Shown here piece by piece: positions 7,332-64,000 of a DNA stretch of 64,000 nt (positions are counted from its first letter, which is position 1; each line of letters begins with the position of its first letter). The notes beneath the pieces were generated by a model. That model was not told where the DNA came from, made no database searches, and was given only the letters and a program-made list of their open reading frames with translations. The position numbers were made by a program, and so were the translations under genes. Source of the DNA: Nemertoderma westbladi (lineage: Eukaryota > Animalia > Xenacoelomorpha); assembly GCA_032718475.1 (NCBI GenBank), contig JAUCBJ010006371.1, positions 40,395 to 104,394 on the forward strand, read 5' to 3'.

Positions 7332-7379
7332 ACAGATTCAATGTTATAATGACCAATAAAGATAAAAGTTCTCTCTTAA

Positions 7380-12171: not shown

Positions 12172-12430
12172 ATGAATGGGATAATCTTTTAGTCTCGTTA
12201 AGCCAAGGAATGCCTGTTCACCACCATGGGTGATCTTCCACAGTAAACCCTTCCACTCTGTTTCCCAGGTTGCCTTGGTTCCCATTTATCGACCACTGAA
12301 GGATGGAGGCCGGGGTTGGGCTAGGCTGCAGCATTTAAAGCACTGTGCCCAAACAGTGCTGCCCCATCTAGGGATCAAACCCGGGCTCCCTAATCGGAAG
12401 CACAGTAATGTCACCACTAGACCAAGCTGC
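12172..12430 (-). mobile_element. tRNA-derived SINE, copy 1
   Basis: The minus-strand head has an A-box TGGTCTAGTGG and a B-box-like GGTTTGATCCC. A second diverged copy lies at ~34993-35250. Confidence 0.75.
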
Positions 12431-12949
12431 TGCTTGGTCTATTATGCTAATGGAATATGGATATATATATATCAGAGAATAGTGCAATAATGTATAATAA
12501 TATAGGATTATTTATTTAATAAATTAAATTTATGGATTAAAATTGCAGGTTTCACTTTGTGGCGGCGGATGTTAAACTATTGAGTGACAGTTAAGAATCC
12601 TGTAAGCGGAACATAGGACGTCGCTGCCTAGCTACGACTGTAAGACAAGGCTACTGCCGCTATGGACGGAGTCTGAGTGGCGCCGGTAGTTAATGGTGCG
12701 GATAGATTTATGTACCGGTACTCCATCCATTTCCTATTCCACACCCCGCTCTAACAGTCAATCACTTCTCAAGAACCCACCCCGTCACACTTTTAAGTAA
12801 CCAAATCCATTAATAATTAGAAATAAACATCCCCCCCCCCATGGTTCCTCGATAATCCATCAATCCAATAATCCATAACCATACATAAATAACCCATACC
12901 TCCAACTATATACAAACCATAACCAACTGTATATAGTTGATCATGCACC

Positions 12950-15092: not shown

Positions 15093-18000
15093 CTATAACG
15101 CCGTTTCTTTTTTGTTATTAATAACAAAAGTGTAGTCAAGGGCTGACGTTGCTAGTGGAATTGAGGTCTTGATAGGAGCGGCGATGTCCCCATTGGTTGT
15201 CACCTTGGTAATCGCAATGTCGTCGCAAGCCTCGTAAAATTTTGAATTATCAAAGAAATTCGCCTGTGTGGAGGCGTTTGATTGGTAGGGGAGAGGGGAC
15301 CCTTCGCAGGACCAATCAGGGATCGAGGATTGTCCGGACCAGCGTCTATCCCGCAACCCTATAACCTCATTGGTCGATGAGTGTGACATAATCTCCAGTG
15401 ATTGGTCCTTAGGTTGTGGGTCTGGGGGCGCGAGTAGGGGGGAATCCGATAGCTTGCCGACTACTCCGTTACGCTTGGGTTTATTCAGCGAGCGGGATAC
15501 CAAACTCAACATCTGTTGTATCTGGCGTTCGTGCCGTGTGAGTCGCACGGACACCCCGCTGTCGCTGTCCACGCCCCCGAGATGGGGCGACTCGCGCGCC
15601 GGCGGCCGGATCTCCCGGAGTACCGCGGAGAGATTCGACGGAAGACTCTGTTTTATTCTCTCATCGTCGCTGAACGCGCCGCTGTACGCGGAACCCCGCT
15701 CCAACGACTCGGGAGTCACTTCGTATTTCATCGACTTTTTATCGGAAGCCGATTTGCTCTTAGTAATTGTATTACTATCTCCCGCTCTGGGTGATTTATT
15801 AGCGAGACAATGGGTGGAGGTGGATGTCAATTGCCTCGATGTCCCTCCCCTGTATTCCCCTATCAATAGGTCTAGCATGCGGCTCTGTGCCGACAGCGAG
15901 GCGCAGACACCAACCCCGGGGTTCCGAGACAACGATCTACTAGAGCAGCGGGGTTGCGCGACTACTGGCGGTTGAAGCGTCGCATCCGATATCTGTACCC
16001 ATAGATCGTCGGGAGTTTTTATTTCAGTTGTGGGATTTGTTTCGGGATTTTGGGTGTCTGGCAAGACGTTCAATATATCCTCAGTGCGTGGTGGCCCCCT
16101 TCCGTTGTGTAACTGAATCACTCTCGGGTTTGCACCGAAAGCCACTGCATTATTCTCTACAGGGGAAAATAAGAGTTTCTTTTTCATTTTTCGTGTTTTG
16201 TTGATAACATTGCTGCCGAGTTTACAGAGCTCCTGGCGCAAAGAGGAATGTATTTTACCACCACTAGAGGGTTGAATGTCCTGGTCTATGATGGATATGG
16301 GGGAGTCGCCTTTACTGGATATAGAAAGAGACCGGGGGATGCCGGTGATTGGTGGGGGGAGACCTCCGCAGCTGCTCCCTGAGGTTGAGCAACTGAGCAC
16401 GTGATTGGTCCGCGGTAGGTCGGGGCTACGGGAGGTAGACAAGGGGGGTCGGTCGTTAGGCAACGGGGGTTTACCGGAGGGACCCAACTTATTGCACACG
16501 ACGCCGTTAGGGGTCGTATCTTCGAGAGGTTTGGAATCCTTCGAGGCGACTTCGTTGTCGGAGACCCCGGAGGAAGTATCGTTGGCCCGAGTATCGGTTG
16601 CTAAGGAAACCGGTACGCCGTAAGTGGCCAGTAGACGGACTATATCAGTGTGGCAACCTTTGAGCGCGAGTTTAAGAGGAGTTCGGTTGTAGCGGTCGGC
16701 GTGGTACGGGTTGGCCCGGTAGGCCAGGAGGGTAGCGACAACGTCGCGATGGCCTTCCTGGGCCGCGATACACAAGGCCGTCGTATCCTGGTTGCAGCAG
16801 TGGTCTATACGGGCCCCCTGGTTGAGCAGACGACCCACTATGGCGGCGTGACCCTGCCACGCAGCCGCCTGCAACGGGCTGCGTCGTTCCTTGTCGCAAG
16901 TGTTGGGCCGCGCGTGGTATTCCAGTAAGAGATTCACCATGGCCGTGTTGCCCTGCCAACAAGCGACGTGGAGTGGAGTCCTTCCCTGGTTGTCCTGACA
17001 CTCTACGTAGGCGTCGTTATCCAATAGGAACCGGGTCATCTGTAGCCGATTCTCTAGGGCCGTCATGTAGACTACCGATCTACCGTCACTGTCCCGCTGG
17101 TTGATGTTGGATCCCTTCATTAGGAACAGGTTGACCAGCTGGAAGTGGCCCTCCAACGCGGCAACCCGTATCGGCGACTGTTCCCCCAGGTCCCGGTGGT
17201 CCATCTTCGCTCCTCGGTTAATCAGCATCTTGCACGTGTCGATGTGGCCCTCGGAAGCGGAGAATATCAGCGCGGTTCGACCTTCCATGTCCGTGTCATC
17301 CACATTGGCGCCAGCGTCAATGATCGTTTGACATACCTGAATAGATAAATAATAGCGAGGTGTTATTATTACGATGGCATTAACAATTACACGATTTGAT
17401 CAATGTCATAATGCAGTGTATAGTACAATGCATAACTAATATTCAAAAAATTTAACATTATTTGATCTAGTTAAGTGAATTATTGGGTTAGATAATACTA
17501 TTGAGGAGAAGAAAACAGAAGATGTACGATGTCTGTTTTGCGAGCAGCTAGACAGTGGTTCCTGTAACTAATGACTTGTTGTGCGAACATTGATGGTGAC
17601 AACGGTTATTCCCGGGGGATCCCAAACTGTTCCACCTCCTGCTGCCATACACCACGAATCCATCCTGCATTCCTGCATCTCAAGGATTATTCAGGTTTTC
17701 CTTCAGTTGTTGGTTACTGATGTGTGTATGTTGATATGGTGCCGATATGATGTGTGTATGTTGATATGGTGCCGATATGATGTGTGTATGTTGATATGGT
17801 GCCGATATGATGTGTGTATGTTGATATGGTGCCGATATGATGTGTGTATGTTGATATGGTGCCGATATGATGTGTGTATGTTGATATGGTGCTGATATGA
17901 TGTGTGTATGTTGATATGGTGCCGATATGATGTGTGTATGTTGATATGGTGCCGATATGATGTGTGTATGTTGATATGGTGCCGATATCTAACTGAGGGT

Positions 18001-21000
18001 AGGGCTGTACAGAAAGTGTAGCGTGGTTTATCTGCACTCGGGGGTATACGAACTTTTAGGCGCCCCCACCTACACACCCATATGTTAACAACGCCTCTGG
18101 GACTGTTAAAAACAGAGGATTCAATTAAGAAAATTTAACATTACTTAACTACATTAACTTCAGCTTAATTAACTTAACATAACTTCAGATAAACCTCTCC
18201 TGTCGCCATGTGACTATGGGAAGACAAAGTGCCGCGGTGTCAATACCAACGGGTTTAATTGAGAATTTAACATTGATGCGGGATATTAATTCGCCAAGGC
18301 GGGTTTTGCGTCGAGTTTCCCCCCTGTCTCTTCGGATCAGTACTTAAGGTTCTTAACAGCATTTGAGTGCCATTTAATTAATACGTTTAATGTTTATTGG
18401 TTTGATGGTAGCCGCGCGCATTAAACCAAGAATAGGTGAACCAATTTGATAAAGTAGCAATGGTTATCATATATCAGGCCAGACGTTAAGGTTCCTCACA
18501 TTATTATTCACAAGGTGTTATTTGCCATGGGGAAGTTAAGTTGCTCGGAATGTGTGACGAATTGTGGCGTTAATAACCCAAGTTGTAAATGAGTTGGATC
18601 TTCTAATCTGACTGCATATGGTGTCCCGCTGTCATCTAATCGTTTTCTGTCGCAAAAGCGTCTTTCATCACCACAGGGGGAGAGAGATACATGTGGTGAT
18701 AAAAACACTGGCCATATGGTTTGGTTTAGTTAGAATTACAACACATAATGTACTCTTGGAATATTTTTGATGGGAATTTGCCTTACCAGAATAGAATACT
18801 AAACTTATCATGTCACTTCAATTCTCCATCAGCCACCTTTGTAAATATATTGGGTGGCAATATGCGAAGCAGACTTTGCTGAGCTGTTCTAAAAAATAAC
18901 TAATTTACTTCATGGAAAATAATATAATGTATCGCTTATATGATTACATCAAGTTTTCTTTGAGACGGGGTGTAACCCGGATTTTCAATGAAACTTAATA
19001 CTGGAATTATTTTAATTAATTATTTTGCTTCACGGTTTACACATCTCATATTTATTTTATTTTAATAAACAATTATTTGTCGAAGAAATATTAATCTTAA
19101 ATAACCATCTTCTCCAACCTCCTGCCTTTTGCCAATCATATTGGGAGGGGGGGGGGGGGGGGGGGGGTGCTTGGGTTTGTCACAAAAAAAATGTGAAAAA
19201 TGTTTCAATTTCCAGGACATTATTTCAACCTAAAACAATATGAAACTGTCCATGTGAGTACAGTACAATTTTAAACGGTTGCAGTTTTATTTTTTGGAGT
19301 AATCAGCTGTTATTTGCATCGATTTTCCCCGGGAGAATGATTAATTTTTATTGCGTCAAGACAAGAGTCCCCCATGCCCATATCTATACTTACCAGTTAT
19401 GGCATACTTAAAATGTGTGGCGTTAAATTAAAACCAGCGTAGTAAATTTACTAGTTCGAAATTTAATTATATACCGTTTAATTTTTCGCTACATATTTTG
19501 GTGCATTTAATTGCGATCGTAAATGCTTAGCTAGAATTTAACGAGAACAAATGCCAAGAATCACTCCCAAACAACATAAATTGAATTATATTGCTGGTAA
19601 AGTTGACAGCTTCGTACACTTATCTGGAACTTACTTGTGACATCAATTTGGCATCAATTCTTTAACTTGCATATAATGGGATTTCAGAATTATTGCGATG
19701 GGTTAGGGTGTAAAATGCGTTTAACGCAAGAATGCGGGTGGATTTGGGTAGATGTTTTCAATAATACGTGTTGTAATGTAATATAATGTAATGTATATGT
19801 TTACAATAAACGGTATATTCAGAGACGGGTTCGGAGGGGGGGGGGGGGGGGGGGGGGGGGTGTATCCATACAACCTACCTTTGTATATCCCTCACGGTTG
19901 TCCCCCGGTTGTCCCACTCAACCCACCTTTATATGTCCCGCGCGGTTGTTCCACTCAACCCACCTTTGTATGTCCCTCACGGTTGTCCCCCGGTTGTCCC
20001 ACTCAACCCACCTTTATATGTCCCGCGCGGTTGTTCCACTCAACCCACCTTTGTATGTCTTTCACGGTTGTCCCCCGGTTGTCCCACGCAATCCACCTTT
20101 GTATGTCCCGCGCGGTTGTTCCACTCAACCCACCTTTGTATGTCCCTCGCCGAAGTCCCACTCAACCCACCTTTGTATGTCCCCCACGGTTGTCCCCCGG
20201 TTGTCCCACTCAATCCACCTTTGTATGTCCCACGCGGTTGTCCCACTCAACCCACCTTTTGTATGTCCATCGCCGAAGTCCCACTCAACCCACCTTTGTA
20301 TGTCCCTCACGGTTGTCCCCCGGTTGTCCCACTCAATCCACCTTTGCATGTCCCATGCGGTTGTCCCACTCAACCCACCTTTGTATGCCCATCGCCGAAG
20401 TCCCACTAAACCCACCTTTATATGTCCCTCACAGTTGTCACCCGGTTGTCCCACTCAACTCACCTTTGTATGTCCCGCCCTGTTGTCCCACTCAACCCAC
20501 CTTTGTATGTTCATCATGGTTGTCCCACTCAACCCACCTTTGTATGTCCCTCACGGTTGTCCCCCGGTTGTCCCACTCAACCCACCTTTTTTATGATCCT
20601 CAGGGTTGCCCCCCGGTTGTCCCACTCAACCCACCTTTGTAAGTCCCACCCTGTTGTCCCACTCAACCCACCTTTGTATGTCCCTCACGGTTGTCCCCCG
20701 GTTGTCCCACTCAACCCACCTTTGTATGTTCCTCAGGGTTGCCCCCCGGTTGTCCCACTCAACCCACCTTTGTATGTCCCACCCTGTTGTCCCACTCAAC
20801 CCACCTTTGTATGTTCCTCAGGGTTGTCCCCCGGTTGTCCCACTCAACCCACCTTTGTATGTTCCTCACGGTTGTCCCACTCAACCCACCTTTGTATGTT
20901 CCTCAGGGTTGTCCCACTCAAGCCACCTTATTATGTCCCTCCCAGTTGTCCTACTCAACCCACCTTTGTATGTCCTTTCCAGTTGTCCCACTCAACCCAC

Positions 21001-24000
21001 CTTTGTATGTCCTTTCCAGTTGTCCCACTCAACCCACCTTTGTATGTCCTTTCCAGTTATCCCACTAAACCCACCTGTGTATGTCCCTCCCAGTTGTCCC
21101 ACTCAACTCACCTTTGTATGTTCCTCAGGGTTGTCCCACTCAAGCCACCTTATTATGTCCCTCCCAGTTGTCCCACTCAACCCACCTTTGTATGTCCTTT
21201 CCAGTTGTCCCACTCAACCCACCTTTGTATGTTCCTCACGGTTGTCCCAATCAACTCATCTTTGTATGTCCTTCCCGGTTGTCCCACTCGCACTCAACCC
21301 ACCTTTGTATGTCCCTCACGGTTGTCCCACTCAAACCACCTTTGTATGCCCCTCACGGTTGTCCCACTCAACCCACCTTTGTATGCCCCTCACGGTTGTC
21401 CCACTCAACTCACCTTTGTATGTTCCTCACGGTTGTCCCAATCAACCCACCTTTGTATGTCCCTCACGGTTGTCCCACTCAAACCACCTTTGTATGCCCC
21501 TCACGGTTGTCCCACTCAACCCACCTTTGTATGTCCCTCACGGTTGTCCCACTCAAACCACCTTTGTATGTTCCTCACGGTTGTCCCACTCAACCCACAT
21601 TTATATGTCCCACCCGGTTGTGCCACTCAACCCACCTTTATATGTCCCTCACAGTTGTCCCACGGTTGTCCCACTCAACCCACCTTTGTATGTTCCTCAT
21701 GGTTGTCCAACTCAACCCACCTTTGTATGTCCTTCCTTTCCAGTTGTCCCACTCAACCCACCTTTGTATGTTCCTCACGGTTGTCCCCCGGTTGTCCCAC
21801 TCAACCCACCTTTGTATGCCCCTCCCAGTTGTCCCACTCAACCCACCTTTGTATGTTCCTCCCGGTTGTCCCACTCAACCCACCTTTGTGTGTCCCTCCC
21901 AGTTGTCCCACTCAACCCACCTTTGTATGTTCCTCACGGTTGTCCCACTCAAGCCACCTTTGTATGTTCCTCACGGTTGTCCCACTCAACCCACCTTTGT
22001 ATGTTCCTCCCGGTTGTCCCACTCAACCCACCTTTGTATGTTCCTCACGGTTGTCCCACTCAAGCCACCTTATTATGTCCCTCCCAAGTGTCCCACTCAA
22101 GCCACCTTTGTATGTTCCTCACGGTTGTCCCACTCAACCCACCTTTGTATGTTCCTCACGGTTGTCCCACTCAACCCACCTTTGTATGTCCCTCCCAGTT
22201 GTCCCACTCAACCCACCTTTGTATGTTCCTCCCGGTTGTCCCACTCAACCCACCTTTGTATGTTCCTCACGGTTGTCCCACTCAACCCACCTTTGTATGT
22301 TCCTCACGGTTGTGCCACTCAAGCCACCTTATTATGTCCCTCCCAAGTGTCCCACTCAAGCCACCTTTGTATGTTCCTCACGGTTGTCCCACTCAACCCA
22401 CCTTTGTATGTTCCTCCCGGTTGTCCCACTCAACCCACCTTTGTATGTTCCTCACGGTTGTCCCACTCAAGCCACCTTATTATGTCCCTCCCAAGTGTCC
22501 CACTCAAGCCACCTTTGTATGTTCCTCACGGTTGTCCCACTCAACCCACCTTTGTATGTTCCTCACGGTTGTCCCACTCAACCCACCATTGTATGTCCCT
22601 CCCAGTTGTCCCACTCAACCCACCTTTGTATGTTCCTCCCGGTTGTCCCACTCAACCCACCTTTGTATGTCCCTCACGGTTGTCCCACTCCACCCACCTT
22701 TGTATGTCCTTTCCAGTTGTCCCACTCAACCCACCTTTGTATATCCCTCCCAGTTGTCCCACTCAACCCACCTTTGTATGTTCCTCACAGTTGTCCCACT
22801 CAAGCCACCTTTGTATGTCCCTCCCAGTTGTCCCACTCAACCTACCATTGTATATTCCTCACGGTTGTCCCACTCAACCCACCTTTGTATGTTCCTCACG
22901 GTTGTCCCACTCAACCCACCTTTATATGTTACTCACGGTTGTCCCACTCAACCCACCTTTGTATGTCCCTCCCAGTTGTCCCACTCAACCCACCTTTGTA
23001 TGTTCCTCACGGTTGTCCCACTCGCACTCAACCCACCTTTGTATGTCCCTCCCAGTTGTCCCACTCAACCCACCTTTGTATGTTCCTCACGGTTGTCCCA
23101 CTCAACCCACCTTTGTATGTTCCTCACGGTTGTCCCACTCGCACTCAACCCACCTTTGTATGTTCCTCACAGTTGTCCCACTCAAGCCACCTTTGTATGT
23201 CCCTCCCAGTTGTCCCACTCAACCTACCATTGTATATTCCTCACGGTTGTCCCACTCAACCCACCTTTGTATGTTCCTCACGGTTGTCCCACTCAACCCA
23301 CCTTTGTATGTTCCTCACGGTTGTCCCACTCGCACTCAACCCACCTTTGTATGTTCCTCACAGTTGTCCCACTCAAGCCACCTTTGTATGCCCCTCCCAG
23401 TTGTCCCACTCAACCTACCATTGTATATTCCTCACGGTTGTCCCACTCAACCCACCTTTGTATGTTCCTCACGGTTGTCCCACTCAACCCACCTTTGTAT
23501 GTTCCTCACGGTTGTCCCACTCAACCCACCTTTGTATGTTCCTCACGGTTGTCCCACTCGCACTCAACCCACCTTTGTATGTTCCTCACAGTTGTCCCAC
23601 TCAACCCACCTTTGTATGTTCCTCACGGTTGTCCCACTCAACCCACCCTCCCAGTTGTCCCACTCAACCCACCTTTGTATGTTCCTCACGGTTGTCCCAC
23701 TCAACCCACCTTTGTATGTTCCTCACGGTTGTCCCACTCGCACTCAACCCACCTTTGTATGTTCCTCACAGTTGTCCCACTCAAGCCACCTTTGTATGTC
23801 CCTCCCAGTTGTCCCACTCAACCTACCATTGTATATTCCTCACGGTTGTCCCACTCAACCCACCTTTGTATGTTCCTCACGGTTGTCCCACTCAACCCAC
23901 CTTTATATGTTACTCACGGTTGTCCCACTCAACCCACCTTTGTATGTCCCTCCCAGTTGTCCCACTCAACCCACCTTTGTATGTTCCTCACGGTTGTCCC

Positions 24001-27000
24001 ACTCAACCCACCTTTGTATGTTCCTCACGGTTGTCCCACTCAACCCACCTTTATATGTTACTCACGGTTGTCCCACTCAACCCACCTTTGTATGTCCCTC
24101 CCAGTTGTCCCACTCAACCCACCTTTGTATGTTCCTCACGGTTGTCCCACTCAACCCACCTTTGTATGTTCCTCACGGTTGTCCCACTCAACCCACCTTT
24201 GTATGTCCCTCCCAGTTGTCCCACTCAACCCACCTTTGTATGTTCCTCACGGTTGTCCCACTCAACCCACCTTTGTATGTTCCTCACGGTTGTCCCACTC
24301 AACCCACCTTTGTATGTCCCTCCCAGTTGTCCCACTCAACCCACCTTTGTATGTTCCTCACGGTTGTCCCACTCAACCCACCTTTATATGTTACTCACGG
24401 TTGTCCCACTCAACCCACCTTTGTATGTCCCGCCCAGTTGTCCCACTCAACCCACCTTTGTATGTCCCTCCCAGTTGCCCCACTCAACCCACCTTTGTAT
24501 GTTCCTCACGGTTGTCCCACTCAACTCACCTTTGTATGTCCTTCCCGGTTGTCCCACTCGCACTCAACCCACCTTTGTATGTCCCTCACCGTTGTCCCAC
24601 TCAACCCACCTTTGTGTGTCCCTCACCGTTGTCCCACTCAACCCACCTTTGTGTGTCCCTCACGGTTGTCCCACTCAACTCACCTTTGTATGTCCTTCCC
24701 GGTTGTCCCACTCGCACTCAACCCACCTTTGTATGTCCCTCACCGTTGTCCCACTCAACCCACCTTTGTGTGTCCCTTACCGTTGTCCCACTCAACCCAC
24801 CTTTGTATGTCCCTCCCGGGCTGCCAGGTGTAACCCCGTCATCCCGTTGTTATCCCGTTGCGATCCATTTATCCGCCGATCGAGCAGCGCGTTGACCACA
24901 TCCAGACTCCCCTGGATGGCCGCCACACCGAACACGAATCTCCCCTCGCCGTCCACCTTATCGTTGGCGGCACCGCGATCCAACAGGGTCGCCACCACGT
25001 CAGCGTGTCCCATCGACGCGGCGGCGAGTAACGAACTCCGTCCGTTGTTATCCGTTCGATTGATATCGGCTCCGCGGTTCAGTACCGACTCGACAACGGG
25101 GTTGAGTCCCTCGTAGGCGGCGAGTAGCAGCGGACTCATTCCGTCTGCGTCGACCTGATCGACAGCGGCGCCGCGGTCCAGGAGGGAGTCCACGATCCGG
25201 TGGTTCATAGCGTGGTGGCTGAGCGCCGCCACAGACAGGGCCGTGCGGCCGTCGGCGTCCGCGTGTCCCAGACGGGCGCCTGCATCCAGCAGCACCCCCA
25301 CCACCGCGGGACGGCCCATATAGGCTGCGGCTATGAGCGGGGTTCGACCCTCGGTGTCGCTGCTGTTAGCGTCCGCCCCCGCCGCTAGCAGCCGCTCAAC
25401 CGCGGTCACGTGACCCGCCCAGGCCGCCGCTCGCAACGCCGTACGTCCGTCGCGGTCCGCCGTATCTACCACAGCCCCGTTGCTCAGAAGCAACTCAATG
25501 ACGTCATCGTGACCCCCCCAGGCGGCGGCCCGTAACGCGGTCCACCCCTGATCGTCCTGTTTGTCCACGGCGATCCCGTTCGCGATGAGCAGCCCCGCGA
25601 TCTCGCCGTGCCCCCGATTGGCCGCCAGATGCAGCGGGTTGTCCCCGGCGGAGTCCGCCGTATCCACATTGGCTCCCCGCTGGAGGAGTAACTCAACGAC
25701 CTCCAGGTTACCCGCGAACGCCGCGTTGCACAGCAACGTGCGCCCGTTGTCGTCCATCTCGTTGACCATGGTGCCGCTGTCCAACCGCATCGCCATGGAG
25801 TTTATGGGATCCGGACACTCGGGTCCCGGGTTCGACCCCCCCTCAGCACCGGGGAGTTTCGCGCCGCACTGCAACAACATGCTGACAACCCTGTCGTCGT
25901 GGTAACGAGTTTGCAGACAGTCGGCGACAGGGCCGCCGGACCACAGCAACCACATGGGTATATGTAGGTCCCCGTCGAATGGGAAATCTATCTGTGATTC
26001 TAGCAAATCGTAACAGAGCGATTGGAGTTGTTTGTGTTCTAGAATGTCGATGCTAAGTGTGGCGTCGCCCCTCAGTGTGGCGTCCCCCCTCAGTGTGGCT
26101 GCCATCGCGAGCATGGCGTGGCCTTCCCGTTTGTGGCACAGATACTTGGGGGTGCAATGCTTCACGTCTAGCAGCCACTCCGCGAAACTATTGTGGAAGA
26201 TCTGTATGTTCCCATGGTGGGTTGTTTGTGTGACGAGTTTGAACACGGAGTCCATGAGTTTGTCGAAGTGTGGGCGGGTGAGTGAGGTGTTGCGAGACGA
26301 GACTGCTATGAACAGTAGGTCGGGGGAGACGGGAGACTGACAGGCGAGCAGCACGTTGAGTAAGGGCTGCACACGGGGAAAATGTTTCCTCGGGAAGATC
26401 CTGTTGCAGAGCCACAAGTAGAACCCGTTGAGAGTCCCGGGGATGTCCCTGATGTCTTGGAGACTAATAAACCGATCGCAGACCCCATCCAATACCTTCT
26501 CCAAGTAGAGAACACAGCCGTTACTCTTAATCAACAGTTGGTTTAACATTTCCGCGGTTTCTTTGCTCAACTGCCGTCTCAATGTCTCATCTTTATCCAA
26601 TCGCGTTAGAATGTATTGCTGAATGTCTTTGACAACGTTGGATTTACGCAGATCGTCGAGGGTGATTTTCCTGAAGCCGCTGAACAATCGGGAGATGTGT
26701 TTCGTGTGGCGTCGGGATGTGCACACTAGGAGTAGCCACGGTGGCAGTAGGTTGTAGTGGGTGGCTAAGAGTTCGGCGATGCTACGACTTTGATTGGTTT
26801 GTTGCACGGAACCAGATGAGTTGGATCCCAAGGGTTGGTTCCCCAGGGTACACTCATCAACCCCGTCTATAAGAAGGAAGCAGTTTCGCGTGGGCGGGTT
26901 TAGAGTGAGCAATGGAAGTAGGACGCCGGATCTAAAAGCCTCGTCCACGTTTTTAGCGCATTCGGTGGGTTCTAGAAGGGCTTTAATACTGGGTTCAGAT

Positions 27001-27329
27001 ATTTTACCTGAGTACCCGTGAATTATAGGGGATTTACACAGGGAAGCCACTAAATACTGTATGAAACCGACCACCGACAACGTTTCGCGCTCTTGGCTGT
27101 GGCAGAACCAAGCGGCCAATAGACGTCGACTCAGCGCCCTCTGGCGGCTGTAGTTGGAAGTAGGTGTCGCGATCTCGGAACACAGGGCGGTCTTCCCGCT
27201 TCCGGGGCCACCCATTATCACGGTGCCGCTACTGCGACAGGAAGGTCGGCTTTCTACGACGTGGAGGATTTTCTGGAACACCCATTCTCGGCAAAAAAAC
27301 CGTTTGCCTTGCAGAGAGCAGGAAGACAT
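15093..27329 (-). CDS. ANKRD50: Ankyrin repeat domain-containing protein 50 (P-loop/NACHT-like NTPase + ankyrin repeats + PDZ-binding tail)
   Basis: Exon 1 27329-24801 has LQGKRFFCREWVF, Walker A GGPGSGKT, Walker B LLIDGVDE and ankyrin repeats, ending AAREGHTK|gtgggt. Exon 2 17336-15093 starts cag|VCQTIIDAGANVDD, has more ankyrin repeats and ends KKETAL, like the vertebrate KKETPL. The phase-0 join completes an ankyrin repeat. Confidence 0.92.
17717..17988. repeat. 30-bp minisatellite (TGATGTGTGTATGTTGATATGGTGCCGATA), ~9 near-perfect copies, in the ANKRD50 intron
   Basis: Directly visible tandem unit. Confidence 0.95.
19870..24820 (-). repeat. ~5-kb 37-bp minisatellite whose unit spans the ANKRD50 exon 1 / intron donor junction
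   Basis: Sense unit CCGTGAGGAACATACAAAG|GTGGGTTGAGTGGGACAA. The first unit is the true exon end (REGHTK) plus donor at 24801/24800. Confidence 0.95.
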
Positions 27330-28948
27330 TTACAAATGGCGGCAAGCAATTTTCAGGCGATATAGATTGTCATTCAAAACAATTAAAAGTTAACGCTGTC
27401 TTTCGTTTATGAACTAGGTATATGCTGCTGTAGTTGTTGTAGATAATGCAATTCATCACAAACAGACAAATCATAACCAATTCGCATTATATCAATTGAA
27501 TATTAGTTGTTACATACAACACAATTAGAAACAAATGTACAATACATTTTCTAACTGATTGACAGCAAATTAAGACTTTCAACAGACTTGATGGTCATTT
27601 GAGAAAAAATTACAGTAGCTAAAATGACTACCGGTAGTGTAGGCCTACCGTTACCGCTTACCGGTAGTACCGGTACAAACTGAAACAAAGTAATCGTAGC
27701 AGCTACCGGTATAGCGGTCCAAAGTATCGGCAGCGGAAAGTAAGTGAAGAACGGCAACTAAATTGATGTATTAGGAATATTTAATAGGAAATATTGTTAC
27801 AGCTACACCAGTACACGTACTCGCTGTAGTACAAATGATTAAACGTACAACTAGTAATTCCCACTCAGTTGGAAATTATCTTGGATCGATCGGTGCTGAT
27901 GTATCTAATATGCCGTTGAGCTTTGATGGGTGCTGTTTTGATATATAATATTCAAATTAATTTGAATAGGGCCGATAGGGTGAATCTGCCCAATTCGAAA
28001 ACAATCAAACCTTTTTTGGAATTTGATTCTTACTATGAAAATTTACAACCTCTCTACTCTCAGTCGATTAAAGGTAAAAGCGTTTTTGGACCTATTAAAT
28101 CCAGAATAAATACTACAAAGGAGTATATTGGCCAATTATAAAATAATATTAAAAGAAACAATAATTCAATAGATTTGACTGATACAGTTCAAATTAAATA
28201 AAAGCAATAGCTGTAATTGTTAGAAACTAATACGAATATTTACAGTCTGACAGTTATAGTAGCCAGCGAAACGCTAAAGTCAAGTCTAATGTTTGCAAAG
28301 ATCTGAAACACCGCAGTGATTTACGATATCATGATAACACACAAGCCCACGCATTGCGTAAAATGTAAAGTAGTTAGTTATCTAGTGTGGTAGAATGTCA
28401 ATAATGCTGACTACCAGAATATATAAATGCAATAGGATGATGGCGACGGTGAGTTTCCAAGAAATATACTATATATATGATGGACTCTGTGTCTGCAAGA
28501 AATATCCTAATATACTATGCTACACTGCCAATGTCTGCTAGTATTTTGTTATGGTTTATGTATTTTTTAGCTCTAAATTATTGAAGCGGCGAGTTTGAAA
28601 AGACCTAAATCTGTAAATGGTGTGTAAACGCTATGCCGACAACCGACAGCCGACAACCAACGCCGACAACCATTATTAAAGCTAATTTATGTTATTTATT
28701 AATTATGGAAAGGAACAGGTTACAGTGGAAGGTTATTCTAACCAAAACAATAAACGAGAGTGACGAACTCCCGTTACATTTTCATATTTTCCGTTGTCTG
28801 CAGTGGTTGTCGGTTGTCGGCTTAAATGGTAAATTTGCAAGTAAATTTTTTCTTTACCTATGTAGTTTTTAAAGCTCTACCCGCCAGTGAGAACGGCCCG
28901 TGTGAAGAATACCAGACTTTCTGCCGTTATATTTCACTTTGCAGTTTA

Positions 28949-29173
28949 CCCCATGTGAAGAATACCAGGTTTTCACTAAAACCACAGGTTACAGAAGGGC
29001 TGAATTTAACCAAAACAATAAACGAATTAGTATACGTACAGGTTATAAGACATAAATAAGCGCTATAAAACACTTAATAAATATAAATTAAAAAAAAAAT
29101 AAAAAATCTTCATATATAAAATTCCAATAAAAAGTCGACCGAAAAGTGAAATCCTGGTATTCTTCACGTGGGC
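28949..29173. mobile_element. Short MITE-like element with inverted ends
   Basis: CCCATGTGAAGAATACCAGGTTTTCACT is inverted as AGTGAAATCCTGGTATTCTTCACGTGGG. A partial extra copy of the end lies near 28897. Confidence 0.5.
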
Positions 29174-29916: not shown

Positions 29917-30187
29917 AACAAGCGCAAAATCGCCCAATGGTCCGCGTCTACTAACGCATTAACTGTCTCCTTGAATGGCTTACAGTACTACCAATCTTAC
30001 TAACAAAAAAATCACCGGAAATTGGGATTGAACTCGATACCTAGAGATTCCAAGTCCAACGCTCTACCAACTTCGCCACTGCGTCGTATGAAGCCTTATA
30101 AAAAACCTAACTGGAAAATTAACAACAACACCAACAACAACAACAACAACGTTGTGAATACTAGGACCTACACGGACGAAAAAAAAC
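29917..30187 (-). mobile_element. Helentron-associated (HINE/DINE-like) non-autonomous element with internal tRNA-like segment, copy 1
   Basis: Homologous to 32849-33108. Has an ACAAG end with hairpin, a GGTCCGCGT subterminal repeat and a (CAA)n microsatellite. Confidence 0.55.
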
Positions 30188-32848: not shown

Positions 32849-33108
32849 AACAAGCGCGAAATCGCGCCAAGGTCCGCGTCTACTAACGCATGAACTGTCT
32901 CCTTGAATGGCTTACTCCCAATCTTACAACAAAAAACTTTCATCGGAATGGGGGATTGAACTCGGTACCTAGAAATTCCAAGTCCCACGCTCTGCCAACT
33001 GAGCCACTGGGGCCGCATTCAATCCTTAATACCAAAACCTAACGAGAAATTAACAACAACAACAACAACGGAGTGAATACTAGAGGTATCGCTACGCGGA
33101 CCTAAAAA
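32849..33108 (-). mobile_element. Helentron-associated (HINE/DINE-like) non-autonomous element with internal tRNA-like segment, copy 2
   Basis: AACAAG end, hairpin GCGCGAAATCGCGC, subterminal inverted repeat GGTCCGCGT...ACGCGGACC and a (CAA)n tract. The minus strand has A-box TGGCTCAGTTGG and B-box GAGTTCAATCCC. Confidence 0.6.
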
Positions 33109-34295: not shown

Positions 34296-37200
34296 TTAAA
34301 CGCATTCGTAAAACTTGTTGAGCTGGTTGGCATCTTCAACTGTTGGTAAGTGATTCCATGGAATGTAGTCGCCGTCAATAGTTACCATGCTGTTACCATT
34401 GGTAGCGAAGGCCCCGCTGTAGTATTGCATAACGGATTTTGTTTCATATGGACTTCCCAAGGAATTTATTGACTGTTTTCGGAATGCAAACCTAGAATTA
34501 AATTAATCACAAATGGACATTGAATTGATAATTACTCCAATTGGTTTAGTTTAGACTAAACGTTATACTATTTTTTAATTATTTGTAAAGTCTTAAGTTT
34601 ACTATAGTTACTTAATTTATAGGTATTTTGTAATAAAAGTCATTAAAAAAAATTCGTCCAATGTAATTACATAATAAATAAGAATATATAAAGATTATTT
34701 ATTTATTATTTTATAGTTCCTACTTTAAATTTTCAGGAATATTCTCCCACAGAATTCTAACGTGGTTGTCTCGATCCGGACGGCTCTGTTCGTGGAAGAA
34801 GCCGGCGGCATGGAGGAACTCGTGGATCGCCGTTCCTTTGCTATGGCAACCGTATCCTAGCGACAAGTTTTGAGACCCGCCATTTCGTCCAACCTAAAGA
34901 CCGAGTTGGATATTAAGTCGATTACAGTAATTATTATTAATATTGTGATTAATACTGTGGGCATAACGCGAATTTAGTAGCAGTGTTTGCATATGAATGG
35001 GAGAATCTTTTAGGCTCGTTAAGCCAAGGAATCCCTGTTCACCACCATGGATGATCTTCCACGGTTAACCCTTCCACTCACTCTGTTCCAAGTTACCTTG
35101 GTTCCCATTTATTGACCAGTTAAGGATGAAATCCTGGGTTGGGCTATGCTGCAGAATTTAAAGTACTGTGTCCAAATCGTGCTGCCTCTATCTAGGGAGC
35201 GAACCAGGGCTTCTAATTGGAAGCCCAGGAATGTAACCACTAGACCAAGCGGGTGCTTGTATGTATTCTAAAGATAAAAAAGGTTGGTACTTACATAAGA
35301 AGTGCAGCCGCTGCCAAGAACAACGTTAACGTAGTCGGGTTCATTAGTTCTCGGCACCAGTCGTATACACGTGTACTGAGCGAACCAAGCCTTGGCCTGG
35401 TCGACCGCATTGCGAACATCTCCGTTAGAAGTTCCATAAGTGTATGGAATTGCGTAATACTATGGAACATACAACAAATTGCAATTAATAAAGGCACCCA
35501 TCAAATACTGTAATAATAATTGGTTGTACTCGTTGCAGACTAATTATACGGAAACAGTAGCACTGTACAGCAGCAGTAGGCCTAAGTGTACTGCCGGTAA
35601 ATGAATCTTCGCCTTTTCCCGGAAAAGATGCAAAAATATTTTGAGGTATTTTTTTTAAAGAAATATGTAGTTTGCCTTTGTTTCCCTCGGTGGGGAGCTA
35701 CTGTAGGTCTATTTGAAGGGGAAAAAGTGCAATCTTATTGGTGAAATGTTGCTTACAAATAGAGTAGGTAAAGAATTTTACAAATCTACCTGGGGGGGGG
35801 GGGGGGGGGGGGTCTTTACGTCTCAGGGCCACGCTTTTGAGCCTTGGATCTTTGTTTTGTAGACACCCTTACAACTACAGTAGTATCTAATGCAAGTAAA
35901 ATTGTAATTCTGGTTGCTTTGATCCGAAATCGGTATCTTATCTGATGTCTTACGTACCACTGGTATGCTATTGATGTACCACTGATGGTACTGATTATTG
36001 ATAGTAACAATGTGTTAGCAAGCTGTATTTTTCGAGGTGTTTGTTATTATACATTTATTATAGGAAGGGATCTAGGGGTCTTTTCAAAGAACCTGTGGCC
36101 TAGTAGTTGTAGTGTCGGCTTTCACCTCGAGGTCCCAGGTTCGAATCCGACACCACGCTGATGAGACCCAGTAAGGTCGAAACGCGTACGTGGTTTGGAG
36201 AGATATGAGATATTAATTTCAAGAAAAATTACGCGATTCCTAAATTTGTACACTACCCGGTTAAAAAGTACGCATGTGATGGGATTAGTCCTGCAATTGC
36301 GCCAATAAAAGATAAGTTATTTTCGGTAAAATAAACTTATCATTCGAGGTAAAGACCCCTAGATCCCTTCCTATAATAAACTGATGGTACTGGTACACTC
36401 ACCTTTGGATACAGATATTGCGTCCATCGAATACTTGGATATGCAGAACTTCCACGACCAAGAATAGCGTCTTCTATTATGGTTCTCGTTTTCTTTGCGA
36501 GAATAATATCTCCCTGTTGAAAGTTGGGACAAACATTACAATTTACATAATTTATGTAAACATTTTAATATATATTTATATCACTGAAGACGTGTGTTAA
36601 TACACGAAATGGCCATATGATAAAAGGAATTTGTTTTACCTAGAATCGTGCCTTAGACCCTTACAACACCAATATAACTCCTCGATTTTACTGTAACTCT
36701 GTCACATTTTAAATTAGTTTTTAATTTGAAAGCTTTGGCTATAAACACCATTACTGTTTAGTCGAATCTTAATGATCCCTGCTCTAAGATATTATATTTT
36801 TTCATTATCAACCTTTTATAAGCTATAAACCCATACTGTATTGGCATTGTGAATTATCCTGTCAGCATAGGCGCCTACGCTTAGCCTTTAGCTTGATAGT
36901 CTGCCACACGCGGTCCCGTTTAGTTTCCATTATTTGGAGTTATCTTACCTACTCGGCCTGTGTAATGTGATCGAAACGTGACAGCATAACCAACCAGTGG
37001 CCTTGGCCAATTACTACCCTGCTTTCACTACGGAATTACATACTTGAGTACGGATCCGGATTTTCATTTTTTAAGGTATAAAAGGCGATGATTTTGTATT
37101 TCCTTCACTTTTTGCGAAAATGCGACTGTGACTTCCTGTGACTGCGCCATTTACTGCGGTAAATGTTTTCTGAGCTTTTAGAGCATTTTGATTTAAATTT

Positions 37201-38738: not shown

Positions 38739-40489
38739 CGTTAAATTTGTCTACAGTGATATGGTAATGTTTATTTGTGACCAATAGTGTTGTCGAGGTT
38801 GTTGAGAAATACAACTTTATTTTTATACTAGAATAACCATTTGAATTTCTACTATATTTTTTGCGATAAAATAAATATGGCAAGAGATAAGGTTTGCATT
38901 AATTAGTAAGTTGAATTCGTTCATTGCAGTTTGTCCAACCAATATAGATAATGCAGCAGTTTAAATTTCAAAAAGCATCTCAAATTGTTTTACTGAATAG
39001 GCGGCTAATACTTTGAAGAAGCCGCATAATGCTAATTTCCCAGGATATTTAAGTTTATTCGGTTGATGACCCCTTAAACTCATGTTCTAATTACTTGAAA
39101 AAAAGATTAGGATTAATTAACTTTAATGCCAATGTATTGTAGGCCGCACGTTCTGTACGTTTATTTGCCGTGCCGAATCCGCGAATCGCGTTTGTTCTTG
39201 ATATCTTAATAATGGTGGTGATGAAAGGTTTTAATTTAGTACCGATCACTTAGTAAGGAGTTTACGGCAGCCATCAAGGCTCATAATGATATCCGAAAAG
39301 AAGCGACTTATAAAGCATCACATGTGAAAACATGTGCATCTTGGTAACGCGCATTATCTTGTCAGGTATTTACTTTTCGTTCGTAATTTTATTGAAGTTT
39401 ATGACGAATACGTATTTGTAAAATATATTTAAAATCTTTTTAAATTTATTTTTTAAATCGTACGATCCACACCTCCATGCATGGTCACGCTTCCGCCTTC
39501 CACAAACCTACGTTGGTGGGGGTGCGTGGGGGGCAGGTGCATATGCGTTCCCGTAGATCAGAGAACACCTTGTCTGTGATTGCTCTGTGACTAACAACCA
39601 TCAAAGCGATGGTGCCTACTGCGTCTTTGTCAATTCTGGACATCCATCAGTAAATGTGTACTTCTAGAAACAGCTTTGCTGCAATATAATTGACGCGGCA
39701 CGTCAATTATGACGCGCCTCACCGACAGTGCCGCCGGCACTGTCGGCAGCATTGACTGTCAAGCATTATTATACTGTTCACAAAATTACGAAATACTTTC
39801 ATTGCGTTCGTTTTTTCTAACAAAGGCTCTATTTATGTGAAATTAAGATTGAAGGCCTACTTTTTTATTCGGACGTCCCTTCGTCATTCGTCCCATTATC
39901 TAGAACCCTCGACCCAATATGTTTATTTATTTATCTTGAGTTTATGAGTTTGTTGTGGGCCATCGCCACATTACTGCATTAATTCGGTCATAATTATGCA
40001 AACTTTCTGTATTTGCTAGGAACAAATATCTAAAGTACTTTTAGTCAAAGCTGTAAGCCTATACTACACACAGACTGTCGGACACACTACAGTACTACCA
40101 GAGACTACTGAGTACAGGAGTAGGCCTACTGAGCTACGGTAGGTATATAATAATAGCTGCACTGATTTGACTGCGATAGGCACCGTCTGACCGGTACTGC
40201 GGTATGCACCTTCCACAGTCTGCGGTCTGAGAGTACAACTAACAGTGCAGTTGCAGAGTTGGTTATATCGTGTTTCAGCTTCAGGGCCTCATTTTATTTA
40301 CCTGTTTCTGTGTTTACCGGTCTGCCACTGGCTGACTGGCGGTGTCTTCCGTTGTCGTTATACAGTGTACTCTACTCAGTACTGGTACTGCAGTACTGGT
40401 GTACCGATTTCCGCCTCACTTTGCACTTTACTGTCAGTCCGGTAACGTCGCACCTGCTGACTGTCAGACTGTAGGACTGTCTGATACAA

Positions 40490-44347: not shown

Positions 44348-44675
44348 ACAATATTGCAATGTTCTAAAGTTAATATACGGAAATAATAACCTGAAGCGAA
44401 TAAAACTGAATAATCACTGATGCCGTTCCAGAAGCAAATTAACCTGTATAATTACCGAGGCCGCAGGCCGAGGTTATTATATTAGGTTAATTAGCTGAAG
44501 GAATAATACCTTCAGCCTTATCCTTCAGCAAATTAACCTAATATAATAACCTCGGCCTGCGGCCTCGGTAATTATACAGGTTAATTTGCTTCTGGAACGG
44601 CATCAGTGATTATTCAGTTTTATGCGCTTCAGGTTATTATTTCCGTATATTAACTCTAGAACATTGCAATATTGT
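44348..44675. repeat. ~330-bp near-perfect palindrome (fold-back)
   Basis: Arms of ~155 bp are reverse complements with few mismatches around a short spacer. Each arm contains CCGAGGCCGCAGGCCGAGG. A related motif lies at ~43748-43795. Confidence 0.88.
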
Positions 44676-59800: not shown

Positions 59801-62800
59801 TTACTTGATTATTAGAAGACCATCAGGGCTTCTTGCTGTCAAAAAAAACATCTGTGTGTGTGTGTGTGTGTACGTGTGTGTGTGTGTGTGGGGGTGTGTG
59901 TGTGTGTGTTTGTCTATATGTTTGTACACATTGATATTGGCTTGGAAGGGTAAGAAGTGCTCTACTTCGTGGCCAACTATACAAAGAAATGTATCGATCA
60001 TTTGGGTTCTTATTTCAGTTATTAGTTATTTAAGCTGGTAAAATTTAGCTCATGCTGTATAAAAATTGCACAGGTCGATTCGCCGTGTCCCCTTGATTAA
60101 TTGCCCTGAGACCAGTTTAATTGACCTGACACCAGTTTAATTGCCCTGAGACCAGTTTAATTGCCCTGGGACAAGTTTAATTGCCCTGGGACCAGTTTAA
60201 TTGCCCTGAGACCAGTTTAATTGCCCTGAGACCAGTTTAATGGCCCAGAGACCAGTTTAATTGACCTGAGACCAGTTTAATTGCCCTAAGACTAGTTTAA
60301 TTGCCCTGAGACCATTTTAATTACCCTAAGACCAGTTTAATTGACCTGAGACCAGTTTAATTGCCCGGAGACCAGTTTAATTGCTCTAAGACCAGTTTAA
60401 TTGCCCCGAGACCAGTTTAATTACCCTAAGACCAGTTTAATTAACCTGAGACAAGTTTAATTGCCCTGAGACCAGTTTAATTGCCCTTGAGACCAGTTTA
60501 ATTGCCCTGAGACCAGTTTAATTGCCCTGAGACCAGTTTAATTGCGCTGAGACCAGTTTAATTGCCCTGAGACCAGTTTAATTGCCCTGAGACCAGTTTA
60601 ATTGCCCTTGAGACCAGTTTAATTGCCCTGAGACCAGTTTAATTGCCCTGAGACCAGTTTAATTGCCCTGAGACCAGTTTAATTGCGCTGAGACTAGTTT
60701 AATTGCCCTGAGACCATTTTAATTGCGCTGAGACCAGTTTAATTGCCCTGAGACTAGTTTAATTGCCCTGAGACCAGTTTAATTGCCCTGAGACCAGTTT
60801 AATTGCCCTGAGACCAGTTTAATTGCCCTGAGACCGGTTTAATTGCGCTGAGACTAGTTTAATTGCCCTGAGACCAGTTTAATTGCCCTGAGACCAGTTT
60901 AATTGACATGAGGCCAGTTTAATTGCTCTGAGACCAGTTTAATTACCCTGAGACCAGTTTAATTGCCCTGAGACCAGTTTAATTGCCCTGAGACCGGTTT
61001 AATTGCGCTGAGACTAGTTTAATTGCCCTGAGACCAGTTTAATTGCCCTGAGACCAGTTTAATTGACATGAGACCAGTTTAATTGCCCTGAGACCGGTTT
61101 AATTGCGCTGAGACTAGTTTAATTGCCCTGAGACCAGTTTAATTGCCCTGAGACCAGTTTAATTGACATGAGACCAGTTTAATTGCTCTGAGACCAGTTT
61201 AATTGCCCTGAGACCAGTTTAATTGCCCTGAGACCAGTTTAATTGCCCTGAGACCAGTTTAATTGCCCTGAGACCGGTTTAATTGCGCTGAGACTAGTTT
61301 AATTGTCCTGAGACCAGTTTAATTGCCCTGAGACCAGTTTAATTGACATGAGACCAGTTTAATTGACATGAGACCAGTATAATTGCCCTGAGACCATTTT
61401 AATTGCCCTGAGACCAGTTTAATTGGCCTGAGACCAGAATAATGATTAACTGACCTGTTATTGTCACCGTGACCTAGGCGACCCTGATCACCGCCACCGA
61501 ATGACCATACTGTTCTACCGTCCATTGACACCGCTAAGGTGTGACTAGCACCGCAGGCCACCTGCCCCACTCCAACCAGGTCGTTCACCAGAGTCGGTAA
61601 ACTCTTACTATTAGAGTCACCATGGCCTAATCTACCAGAATCGCCTGAAAAATAATCAATATAAAAAAAACATAACAAAGGAAAGTTGTAGAAATAGGGC
61701 TAGTAACCAAATATCATGGTACCAAATTTATTTGTACTATACATGATAATCAATTCATTTTAATAATTAACAAAGACCTACTGCGCTGTGGCAAGCCACT
61801 AACTCTATCAGCATCTTATCAGCTCACACTTCCTTATCTCAGCAACGGCAGAAATTTGTTTAAATTTGAATGACGGGATGAATTGTCTTGAGAGAGTTAC
61901 ATAGAGAATTACAATTACATTACTCACAAGAGCTTTCGCAAAAAACTGTCAAAGTTTCAAAACTTTTTTGATAGACAAAACCAATTTGGACCTTATCAAA
62001 AACTGCAGAATACTATAATAATATTGGTTCTGAGTATAACGATACCCAACTCACCTTCTCCCCAGGTGTAGAGCATCCCGTCCTCTGTGACCGCAGCCGA
62101 ATGTCTGTAACCCGCACTGATGCACGAAACTACCTTCAACTCTAAAGCGCCTCCGATGAGTTTCGGAACCTTTTGTGTCGTCGAGTTGCCGTGGCCCAGT
62201 TTACCGTAATCACCGTCACCCCAGGAATATACCTGGCCGGTTTCAGATAGAGCTAGTGTATGGCCGTCGGAACCTAGACAAACAAATGGTTCAGATAGAG
62301 CTAGTGTATGTCCGTCGGAACCTAGACAAACAAATGGTTCAGATAGAGTTAGTGTATGTCCGTTGGGAACCTAGACAAACAAATGGTTCAGATAGAGCTA
62401 GTGTATGGCCGTCGGAACCTAGACAAAGAAATGGTTCAGATAGAGCTAGTGTATGTCCGTCGGAACCTAGACAAACAAATGGTTCAGATAGAGTTAGTGT
62501 ATGTCCGTTGGGAACCTAGACAAACAAATGGTTCAGATAGAGCTAGTGTATGGCCGTCGGAACCTAGACAAACAAATGGTTCAGATAGAGCTAGTGTATG
62601 GCGGAACCTAGACAAACAAATGGTTCAGATAGAGCTAGTGTATGGCGGAACCTAGACAAACAAATGGTTCAGATAGAGCTAGTGTATGGCGGAACCTAGA
62701 CAAATAAATGGTTCAGATAGAGATAGTGTATGGCCGTCGGAACCTAAACAAACAAATGGTTCAGATAGAGATAGTGTATGGCCGTCGGAACCTAGACAAA

Positions 62801-64000
62801 CAAATGGTTCAGATAGAGTTAGTGTATGTCCGTTGGGAACCTAGACAAACAAATGGTTCAGATAGAGCTAGTGTATGGCCGTCAGAACCTAGACAAACAA
62901 ATGGTTCAGATAGAGCTAGTGTATGGCGGAACCTAGACAAACAAATGGTTCAGATAGAGATAGTGTATTAGAGACGAATAAATCGTGATTCTAACCCTTG
63001 GAACTGGATATCTTCCTTATGGCTGGCCCGTCTAGGAATGCGAGAGTCTTTGGGGACTGCTGGTTGGTGCTGTCCCCCAGACCAAGTCGACCGTAGGAGC
63101 CCTTCCCGCAGGCCCTCACGGCCCCGTCGTACCCTACCACGAATGTGCAGTATTGCCCGGCCTCTGCGTGACGCGCCCCGTCGAAACTCCCACTCCGTTT
63201 GGGACAGAGAATCTTCTCGATACTCGAGTCGGCGAGTTGGTGGCTGCTGTTGGAGCCCCACACGTAGACGTCGCTGGGGGTCGAACCCGCGGCTTGGACG
63301 CCCGGCTCGGTGCTACAGGTACGCGCGTACATGTTGGCCTGGTCCGCCAGCTCCGAGTGCAGTTGCATCGCGGCGGCGTAGAGCGAACACTCGCTCGAAG
63401 GATCGTCGTTGGGTACGTAACGACTCGACTCCGAGCACCGACCCCCGGACTGTCGGACTTGGATAAATATCTGGGAGAATATTCGGCTCGATATCTGCGA
63501 ATTACATAGGAAATATTATTTTACCTGTCTGCTAAAAGACACAGCCCTTGATAACTCAAATTAATTGGGGAGTTATATGGTTGATCGCGAACTCTGGAGG
63601 TGATGCATCCTAGTGATGTGGACGATGATGTACATGAACCTACCTACATCATGATAATAGGAAAACTAAACCATAAAAAAAAGTAAACAAACTTACCGTA
63701 TTGCCCGCCGATGCATGACTTTTCAGTATCACTTCAATCCATTCTAGAATATAGTGTAGAGAACCTCTGTGACACGCTATACCTAGCAGCAATTCTGCAC
63801 ACAATCGTCGTCCCTGTATCAAATTAATTTAATTTCTCATTAAAATTAACTCACATTGTCACTACAGATCAGAAGTTTAATTAACTATCCCCAACTATTA
63901 ATTAATTATTAAAACTCACCAGATTATCGGCACAGGATGAAGAAACCATCGCAGTTTTGAGGAAGGAGGAGACCTGGTCCAAACAATCTACAGCGATACC
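47822..64000 (-). CDS. HERC1: Giant HECT E3 ubiquitin ligase HERC1 (RLD1, SPRY, UBA, Cys/His-rich segment, WD40, RLD2, HECT); 5' end outside the window
   Basis: Exons 64000-63920, 63813-63697 ([11 protein letters not shown]...[12 protein letters not shown]), 63494-62996 ([12 protein letters not shown]), 62273-62055, 61644-61455, 59617-59365 and 58939-47822. RCC1 repeats, SPRY ([17 protein letters not shown]), and a HECT domain ending [16 protein letters not shown]...IDMDNYML. Confidence 0.93.
59853..59909. repeat. (TG)n microsatellite in a HERC1 intron
   Basis: Directly visible. Confidence 0.9.
60095..61438. repeat. 20-bp minisatellite (AATTGCCCTGAGACCAGTTT), ~65 copies, starting ~15 nt into a HERC1 intron
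   Basis: Directly visible. The donor GT is at 61454-61453. Confidence 0.95.
62242..62968 (-). repeat. 48-bp (44/49-bp variants) minisatellite whose unit spans a HERC1 intron/exon acceptor junction; 15 acceptor copies
   Basis: Sense unit CCATTTGTTTGTCTAG|GTTCCGACGGCCATACACTAGCTCTATCTGAA. The last unit is the true exon start ([11 protein letters not shown]) at 62273. Confidence 0.95.

Follow-up and report, generated by a model that had tools for sequence, protein, structure and literature searches.

A minisatellite of 129 donor-bearing units built on the 5' splice site of an ANKRD50 orthologue in Nemertoderma westbladi

A minisatellite may lie across the boundary between an exon and its intron, where every added copy brings another potential splice site. 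Such an array lies in the xenacoelomorph Nemertoderma westbladi, within a stretch of 64,000 nucleotides (assembly GCA_032718475.1, contig JAUCBJ010006371.1, positions 40,395 to 104,394), referred to below as the window and numbered from its first letter. The repeat occupies the start of the intron that separates two coding exons of an ANKRD50 orthologue, a gene read from the minus strand, and each unit joins the end of the upstream exon to the beginning of the intron. The features of this locus are as follows.

24801..27329, minus strand: first coding exon of the ANKRD50 orthologue, 843 codons, with NACHT-like/TANC1-type domains and ankyrin repeats, ending REGHTK
24799..24800, minus strand: authentic 5' splice donor GT, AAG/GTGGGT (the slash marks the splice site), phase 0, placed by a spliced contig and by colinearity with orthologues
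24792..24794, minus strand: in-frame TGA at intron positions +7..+9, kept by any donor further downstream
19862..24819, minus strand: 37-bp junction minisatellite, 129 donor-bearing units (1 authentic donor and 128 pseudo-donors)
19836..19860, plus strand: run of 25 G adjoining the distal end of the array
17337..19835, minus strand: remaining intron, 2.5 kb, not derived from the unit, including a separate array of nine 30-bp copies at 17718-17988
17337..17338, minus strand: 3' splice acceptor AG, preceded by a pyrimidine-rich tract (0.71 pyrimidine)
15093..17336, minus strand: second coding exon, 747 codons, starting VCQTII, with ankyrin repeats followed by a low-complexity tail

A protein search with the translation of exon 1 returned 533 matches at E<=1e-30, the best of them hemichordate ANKRD50-like proteins (53% identity over 99% of the query), followed by ANKRD50 of vertebrates, molluscs and arthropods, which marks the host as a bilaterian. 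Comparisons with orthologues here use the 120 of these matches that were listed, most of which are named ANKRD50 or ANKRD50-like. Pfam finds NACHT-like/TANC1-type N-terminal domains and ankyrin repeats in the predicted protein. By its top matches and its domains, the host gene is thus an ANKRD50 orthologue, an assignment drawn from match names and domain content rather than from a tree, and the name given to the gene in the initial annotation of this DNA, a model's reading of its letters and open reading frames, is upheld.

The intron runs from 24800 to 17337 (7,464 nt). When exon 1, ending at 24801, is joined to exon 2, starting at 17336, the product aligns without a gap across the junction in 116 of the 120 listed orthologues; the authentic exon 1 is therefore intact, and all the additional copies of the junction are intronic. 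Tandem Repeats Finder reports a period of 37 bp at 19899-24819 with scores of 4306 and 1771, and splitting the minus strand at the donor yields 129 donor-bearing units between 24800 and 19878. No spacing exceeds 49 nt, so the count of units is complete. The 128 spacings range from 26 to 49 nt and comprise 104 of 37 nt, 12 of 48 nt, 8 of 43 nt and 4 of other values. In the first unit, the 19 nt that close exon 1 and encode REGHTK are followed by 18 nt from the start of the intron. The motif AAG/GTGGGT is present in 95 of the 129 units and the GT in 128, the 104 units of 37 nt share a mean identity of 93% with their consensus, and that consensus departs from the true exon end at just 2 of 19 positions. 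Altogether the array makes up 4,939 nt, or 66%, of the intron. Ten of the twelve 48-nt units are found between 20852 and the distal end, and the 43-nt variants belong to the proximal and middle parts. Thus the anatomy proposed in the initial annotation (some 130 tandem copies of the donor, a unit of 19 exonic and 18 intronic nucleotides spanning the junction, AAG/GTGGGT in most copies, about two thirds of a 7.46-kb intron, and longer variants next to poly-G at the distal end) was recovered by direct counting. Elsewhere in the 64-kb window no unit-like sequence was found (threshold of 13 mismatches or fewer per 37). The G run beside the array is not special, because long G or C homopolymer runs recur in the non-coding DNA of the window (at 7437, 9740, 13600, 19137, 19836 and 47675).

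Given so many near-identical donors, the first matter is which of them is spliced. A run search listed 8 sequencing runs, 5 of which contain part of exon 1 and none of which is recorded as RNA. One of them, X3, is labelled 'DNA?' and is taken here as RNA from its behaviour: it covers exon sequence only, with contigs spanning 24920-27508 across exon 1, and it contains a spliced junction, whereas runs X1, X2 and X4 continue through the flanking DNA. Run X6, which comes from another organism, gave no cover and so carries no weight. The junction is found in record 7 of X3 (413 nt, depth 62.5), which lies on 17013-17338 and departs from the genome at 17338, an offset of two bases explained by the fact that exon 1 and the intron both end in AG. 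All 30 letters compared in its loose end are those predicted for splicing from donor 1, and the equivalents for donors 2-129 differ by at least 10. Thus in this one contig from one run the normal messenger passes through the authentic site, the first donor at 24800 being joined to the single acceptor. The possibility that the true donor lay elsewhere, so that the unit would not span the junction after all, is not borne out, since the spliced contig and the colinearity of orthologues both place it at 24800. No second loose end at the acceptor appears among the 3 listed for X3, contigs being a form of evidence that drops rare forms. Eight downstream units, unit 4 included, match the donor consensus better than the real donor does (7-8 against 6 of 11 positions), yet the first donor is the one seen. 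Another X3 contig, 53 nt long and internal to exon 2, joins 16451 to 17013 and so skips 561 nt, with 7 letters common to both sides; this is not a GT-AG pair on the minus strand and is probably a template-switch or graph artefact.

Use of any other donor would truncate the protein. Reading through the first donor gives K-V-G-stop, and because the TGA at +7..+9 is in frame, each of the 128 downstream donors, irrespective of frame (44, 43 and 41 of them in frames 0, 1 and 2), leads to one and the same truncated product of 845 residues. The stop noted in the initial annotation is accordingly present, only the first donor gives the full-length protein, and that donor is also the one found spliced. 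Nonsense-mediated decay (NMD) has a limit of 50-55 nt between stop and junction. Splicing from donor 2 leaves the stop 28 nt upstream of the junction, within that limit, so decay would not be automatic for the likeliest mis-splice; from donor 3 onward the stop lies beyond it.

The internal organization of the array speaks to how it was formed. Among the 128 units there are 63 distinct sequences, variants are shared between units, three blocks of 6 units each occur twice, and divergence grows with distance from the exon (Spearman 0.25, P=0.004). On sequence grounds, such order marks a genuine array, its units being turned over in concert through unequal exchange. The sense strand of the array also contains 18 G-quadruplex (G4) motifs, where 200 shuffles of the letters average 3 and reach 8 at most, though shuffling destroys the periodicity and the excess can serve as a lead only.

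Sequencing runs provide a view of the array that does not depend on this assembly. X1 is a DNA run and possibly the source of the assembly, and X2 is an independent DNA run that differs from the window in 7 places within the two exons. In both, the unique contig ends at the array edge, where repeated words start (24788 in X1, 24790 in X2), and the bin holding one unit has a depth of 558 in X1 and 230 in X2 compared with about 19 in unique DNA. The corresponding crude ratios are about 92 and 34, and depth of this kind is not a copy number. The junction unit is therefore present in many copies in two samples, and the concern that raw reads might fail to support the array is answered to that extent; the length of 129 units is an assembly figure. 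It could be argued that a short junction array is real and that its length was overstated by the assembly, a view that draws on the lower ratio in X2 and on the length being read from the assembly. We regard such inflation as very unlikely: the 63 distinct units, ordered blocks and divergence gradient are unlike the products of collapse or expansion errors, the ratio in X1 is about 92, and the contigs break at the array edge in both samples.

The exon was the source of the repeat. The exonic part of the unit encodes an ankyrin E-G-H motif, whose residues are conserved in the listed orthologues (E in 119 of 120, G in 119 of 120, H in 116 of 120). The same EGH can still be read in only 43 of the 128 copies, and 4 of the 128 carry a stop in that frame. 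Because the motif is conserved in orthologues and kept in only a third of the copies, sequence comparison gives the direction of copying as from exon to repeat, followed by drift of the copies, and the array has extended into the intron only.

The intron itself looks older than the array. Unrelated sequence accounts for 2.5 kb of it, it has a pyrimidine-rich acceptor of its own, and three matches of the open reading frame (ORF) type (P0102, P0114 and P0119; 830-838 residues) lose homology at the same site, continuing with V-S, V-G and V-R. From these proteins we infer read-through of a phase-0 donor at the shared position. Under the AG/GT proto-splice-site model a duplication creates an intron outright, and one might suppose either that this intron was born from the duplication or that its units serve as recursive splice sites. 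There is an AG/GT in each unit, and the junction reads AAG/GT...CAG/GT. That said, no pyrimidine tract precedes the unit AGs, where the pyrimidine fraction averages 0.34 and never exceeds 0.41, compared with 0.71 before the true acceptor; that acceptor is found 2.5 kb past the array, and the intron position appears common to other animals, so that an origin of this sort, or a recursive role, seems exceedingly improbable.

If the extra donors were kept by selection, the donor core might be expected to vary less than the remainder of the unit. Positions -3..+6 carry 1.0 minor alleles per site against 1.39 elsewhere in the unit (permutation P=0.14), 14 of the 37 possible nine-site windows are as conserved as the donor core or more so, and the G at +5 differs in 19 of 128 units, placing it among the most variable sites. 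With 9 sites the comparison has little power, and as it stands it lends selection no support. These figures bear on the suggestion that the copies have been retained as landing sites for the U1 small nuclear ribonucleoprotein (snRNP), either to guard against early intronic polyadenylation or as a sponge. The GT intact in 128 of 129 units would agree with such a role, as would the 4 AATAAA and 8 ATTAAA hexamers in the non-repeat intron just downstream, there being none in the array. Against this, conservation of the core is not significant, the donor is a mediocre one with 6 of 11 matches and a variable +5G, and polyadenylation hexamers are to be expected in a non-repeat intron that is AT-rich. 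As for the sponge, one locus cannot titrate an abundant snRNP. A selected U1 array is, in our judgment, highly improbable.

Donor-bearing tandem repeats have been described before. Among the closest is the variable number tandem repeat (VNTR) of human F7 intron 7 (intervening sequence 7, IVS7), which likewise has a 37-bp unit, a first unit laid over the donor, GTGGGT at +1..+6, pseudo-donors following in the intron and use of the most upstream donor. The F7 pseudo-donors can function yet stay silent; no competition comes from downstream sites that are stronger, with consensus values of up to 91, and adding or deleting units, from 1 to 12, leaves donor choice unchanged (Borensztajn et al. 2006; PMC1557585). 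The two arrays differ in that the F7 array counts 5-9 units, with 4 exonic nucleotides, and that of ANKRD50 129, with 19, in that the F7 exon is an internal one of 124 nt and the ANKRD50 exon a first coding exon of 2.5 kb, and in that all the ANKRD50 pseudo-donors keep a stop. Their equal unit length is a coincidence and implies no homology. In four other cases, CBS IVS13, the interferon-inducible 6-16, LMNB2 and PDGF, a donor is reiterated 10-25 times, fewer than the 129 of ANKRD50, and splicing is confined to the first one to three (PMC1557585). Donors 2-3 are detectably used in CBS and 6-16; none was seen in use in ANKRD50, by a method blind to rare use.

The 'mirage' minisatellites of amphioxus, found in Adh3, the globins BflGb6 and BflGb9, troponin C and PGBD5, are also tandem copies of exon-intron boundaries, with units of 10-160 bp, concerted evolution and several cases per genome; they occur on donor and acceptor sides alike and leave splicing undisturbed (PMC3087553, PMC3902484). 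The present array belongs to another invertebrate and has 129 copies against 3-6 in BflGb6. Nothing relevant to units laid across a junction came from PMC10078293.

The VNTR of human ABCA7 intron 18 is likewise several kilobases long and has a donor GT in its unit, with alleles of up to 9,711 bp made of 25-bp units, and retention of one unit causes a frameshift and a stop (De Roeck et al. 2018; PMC5954066). The ABCA7 unit starts at the GT and that of ANKRD50 adds 19 nt of exon; moreover, the effects of length on expression and exon skipping have been measured in ABCA7, whereas the ANKRD50 array is known from sequence and one spliced contig. This precedent is the best argument that the array tunes dosage by its length, longer alleles giving more stop-containing products or slower splicing and hence less ANKRD50, which could be an unselected side effect: retention of one unit in ABCA7 is about 2%, and longer alleles go with lower expression (PMC5954066). 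It is joined by the stop kept by all 128 downstream donors and by the crude depth ratios, which differ between X1 (about 92) and X2 (about 34), again as depths and not as copy numbers. No alternative junction occurs among the 3 loose ends listed for X3, however, and unit number in F7 is without effect on donor choice over the range of 1-12 (PMC1557585), so we consider a length-dependent tuner unlikely. The functional roles offered in the initial annotation (U1 sponge, NMD-coupled dosage control, expression tuner) thus find no support in the core comparison, in the variation at +5G in 19 of 128 units, or in the indifference of F7 splicing to unit number. Its remark that the spliceosome must pick one donor among more than 100 holds in so far as the many donors are real; as a puzzle, the choice is a studied case and not a new one.

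All told, the arrangement is already known from F7, CBS, ABCA7 and the lancelet mirages, and the ANKRD50 array is a large, clean and well-supported example of it that is most likely neutral. The account we favor, with a probability of roughly 0.78, is that a small duplication over an existing donor seeded the array, that the array expanded in blocks, and that it is tolerated through choice of the upstream donor and through slips that end in a stop. In detail, slippage or unequal exchange would have duplicated 37 bp across the donor of the older intron, and unequal exchange or conversion would then have enlarged the array in multi-unit blocks, perhaps aided by the G-rich strand. By analogy with F7, the spliceosome may settle on the furthest upstream donor it can use while the RNA is still being made, in which case copy number would cost little. 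Occasional splicing from donor 2 or a later one would yield the 845-residue truncated product or decay and so would remain hidden, leaving little for selection to act on. The array is thus likely to be a neutral passenger and its extra donors almost silent, harmless decoys, both the positional rule in this animal and the neutrality being inferred.

Several observations weigh against this account. The donor core does tend toward fewer variants, and its GT is nearly invariant. The donor-containing VNTR of ABCA7 correlates with expression and splicing (PMC5954066), CBS and 6-16 make use of the next two pseudo-donors, and the first-donor rule was established in mammalian cells for no more than 12 units and an exon of 124 nt (PMC1557585), whereas the case at hand is an invertebrate gene with a 2.5-kb exon. 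Splicing is documented by a single contig of a single run, judged to be RNA by its behaviour, and pseudo-donor use of a few percent may be compatible with the contig data. If the account holds, the first-donor rule would be extended to an invertebrate gene in which 128 competing donors stand behind a very long exon.

Elsewhere in the window a second array coincides with a splice junction. Eight arrays longer than 250 bp total 11.6 kb, or 18% of its length, and one of them carries the opposite kind of splice site.

62242..62968, minus strand: HERC1 acceptor array, fifteen 48-bp copies (17 nt of intron and 31 nt of exon), the last copy being the colinear acceptor, exon start 62273

In this array only acceptor 15 is colinear with orthologues. 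Acceptor 14 would add 16 residues in frame, and the remaining 13 are unproductive, the frame being broken or a stop met; the first acceptor copy lies 63 nt from the donor at 62995. No HERC1 protein of the same species, against which acceptor choice could be compared, was found among 68 matches (best 70-72% over a third of the query). Two of the eight arrays therefore contain a junction, and with rough inputs of 22 junctions and 31 kb of non-coding DNA the chance of 2 or more of 8 is 0.017. If the ANKRD50 array is set aside as the index case, the chance of 1 or more among the other 7 rises to 0.17, and for this reason enrichment of arrays at junctions is suggestive and is not claimed. A bolder combination, in which minisatellites are seeded preferentially at junctions here (the donor in ANKRD50, the acceptor in HERC1) and the 129-donor array is a length-variable rheostat leaking stop-containing forms in proportion to its size, strikes us as improbable. 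Were it true, the rheostat would parallel the ABCA7 VNTR in an invertebrate and provide a natural ladder of 100 sites on which to follow the decay of donor choice with distance. As matters stand, arrays of donors and of acceptors lie within 40 kb of each other, which makes the locus handy as a natural reporter of how splice sites are chosen, and also a trap for gene predictors and read mappers. The finding would become weightier only if array length altered ANKRD50 output, or if junctions genome-wide seeded minisatellites above chance.

A further HERC1 array, 67 copies of 20 bp on the minus strand at 60097-61437, starts 17 nt after the donor at 61454, and a few of its unit variants resemble the donor context. 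It has no exon part and was not counted as a junction array; it may be an older array of junction origin. The gene continues, after several small exons, in a single open frame of 11.1 kb and 3,705 codons at 47822-58939 (minus strand), encoding SPRY, WD40, a second RCC1-like domain and HECT.

Two other genes were noted in the window. The 3' part of a PARP4-like gene lies at 1846-7340 on the plus strand. In its exon at 2816-5191 there is a fragment similar to the N-terminus of actin (PF00022, E 3e-8), and P0193, a PARP4-like protein of a mussel, also has one. The introns of the gene contain a 35-bp array at 1-1406 and a 20-bp array at 5243-7032. The latter occupies most of its intron and meets neither junction; for the former, which runs off the window, no tie to a PARP4 exon end was found. 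A septin gene at 40475-41737 (plus strand) has its coding region in one open frame of 420 codons.

Dispersed repeats are present as well. Sequence at about 28650-29170 belongs to a very high-copy family, its summed contig depth reaching at least 10^5 in three DNA runs compared with about 19 for unique DNA, and is possibly a non-autonomous transposon; a second repeat lies near 29934-29983. Two dispersed pairs are 85% (12172-12436 and 34993-35259) and 83% identical (29917-30138 and 32849-33069). Finally, a long inverted repeat spotted by eye at about 44400-44625, with arms of about 100 bp, looks like a fold-back element.

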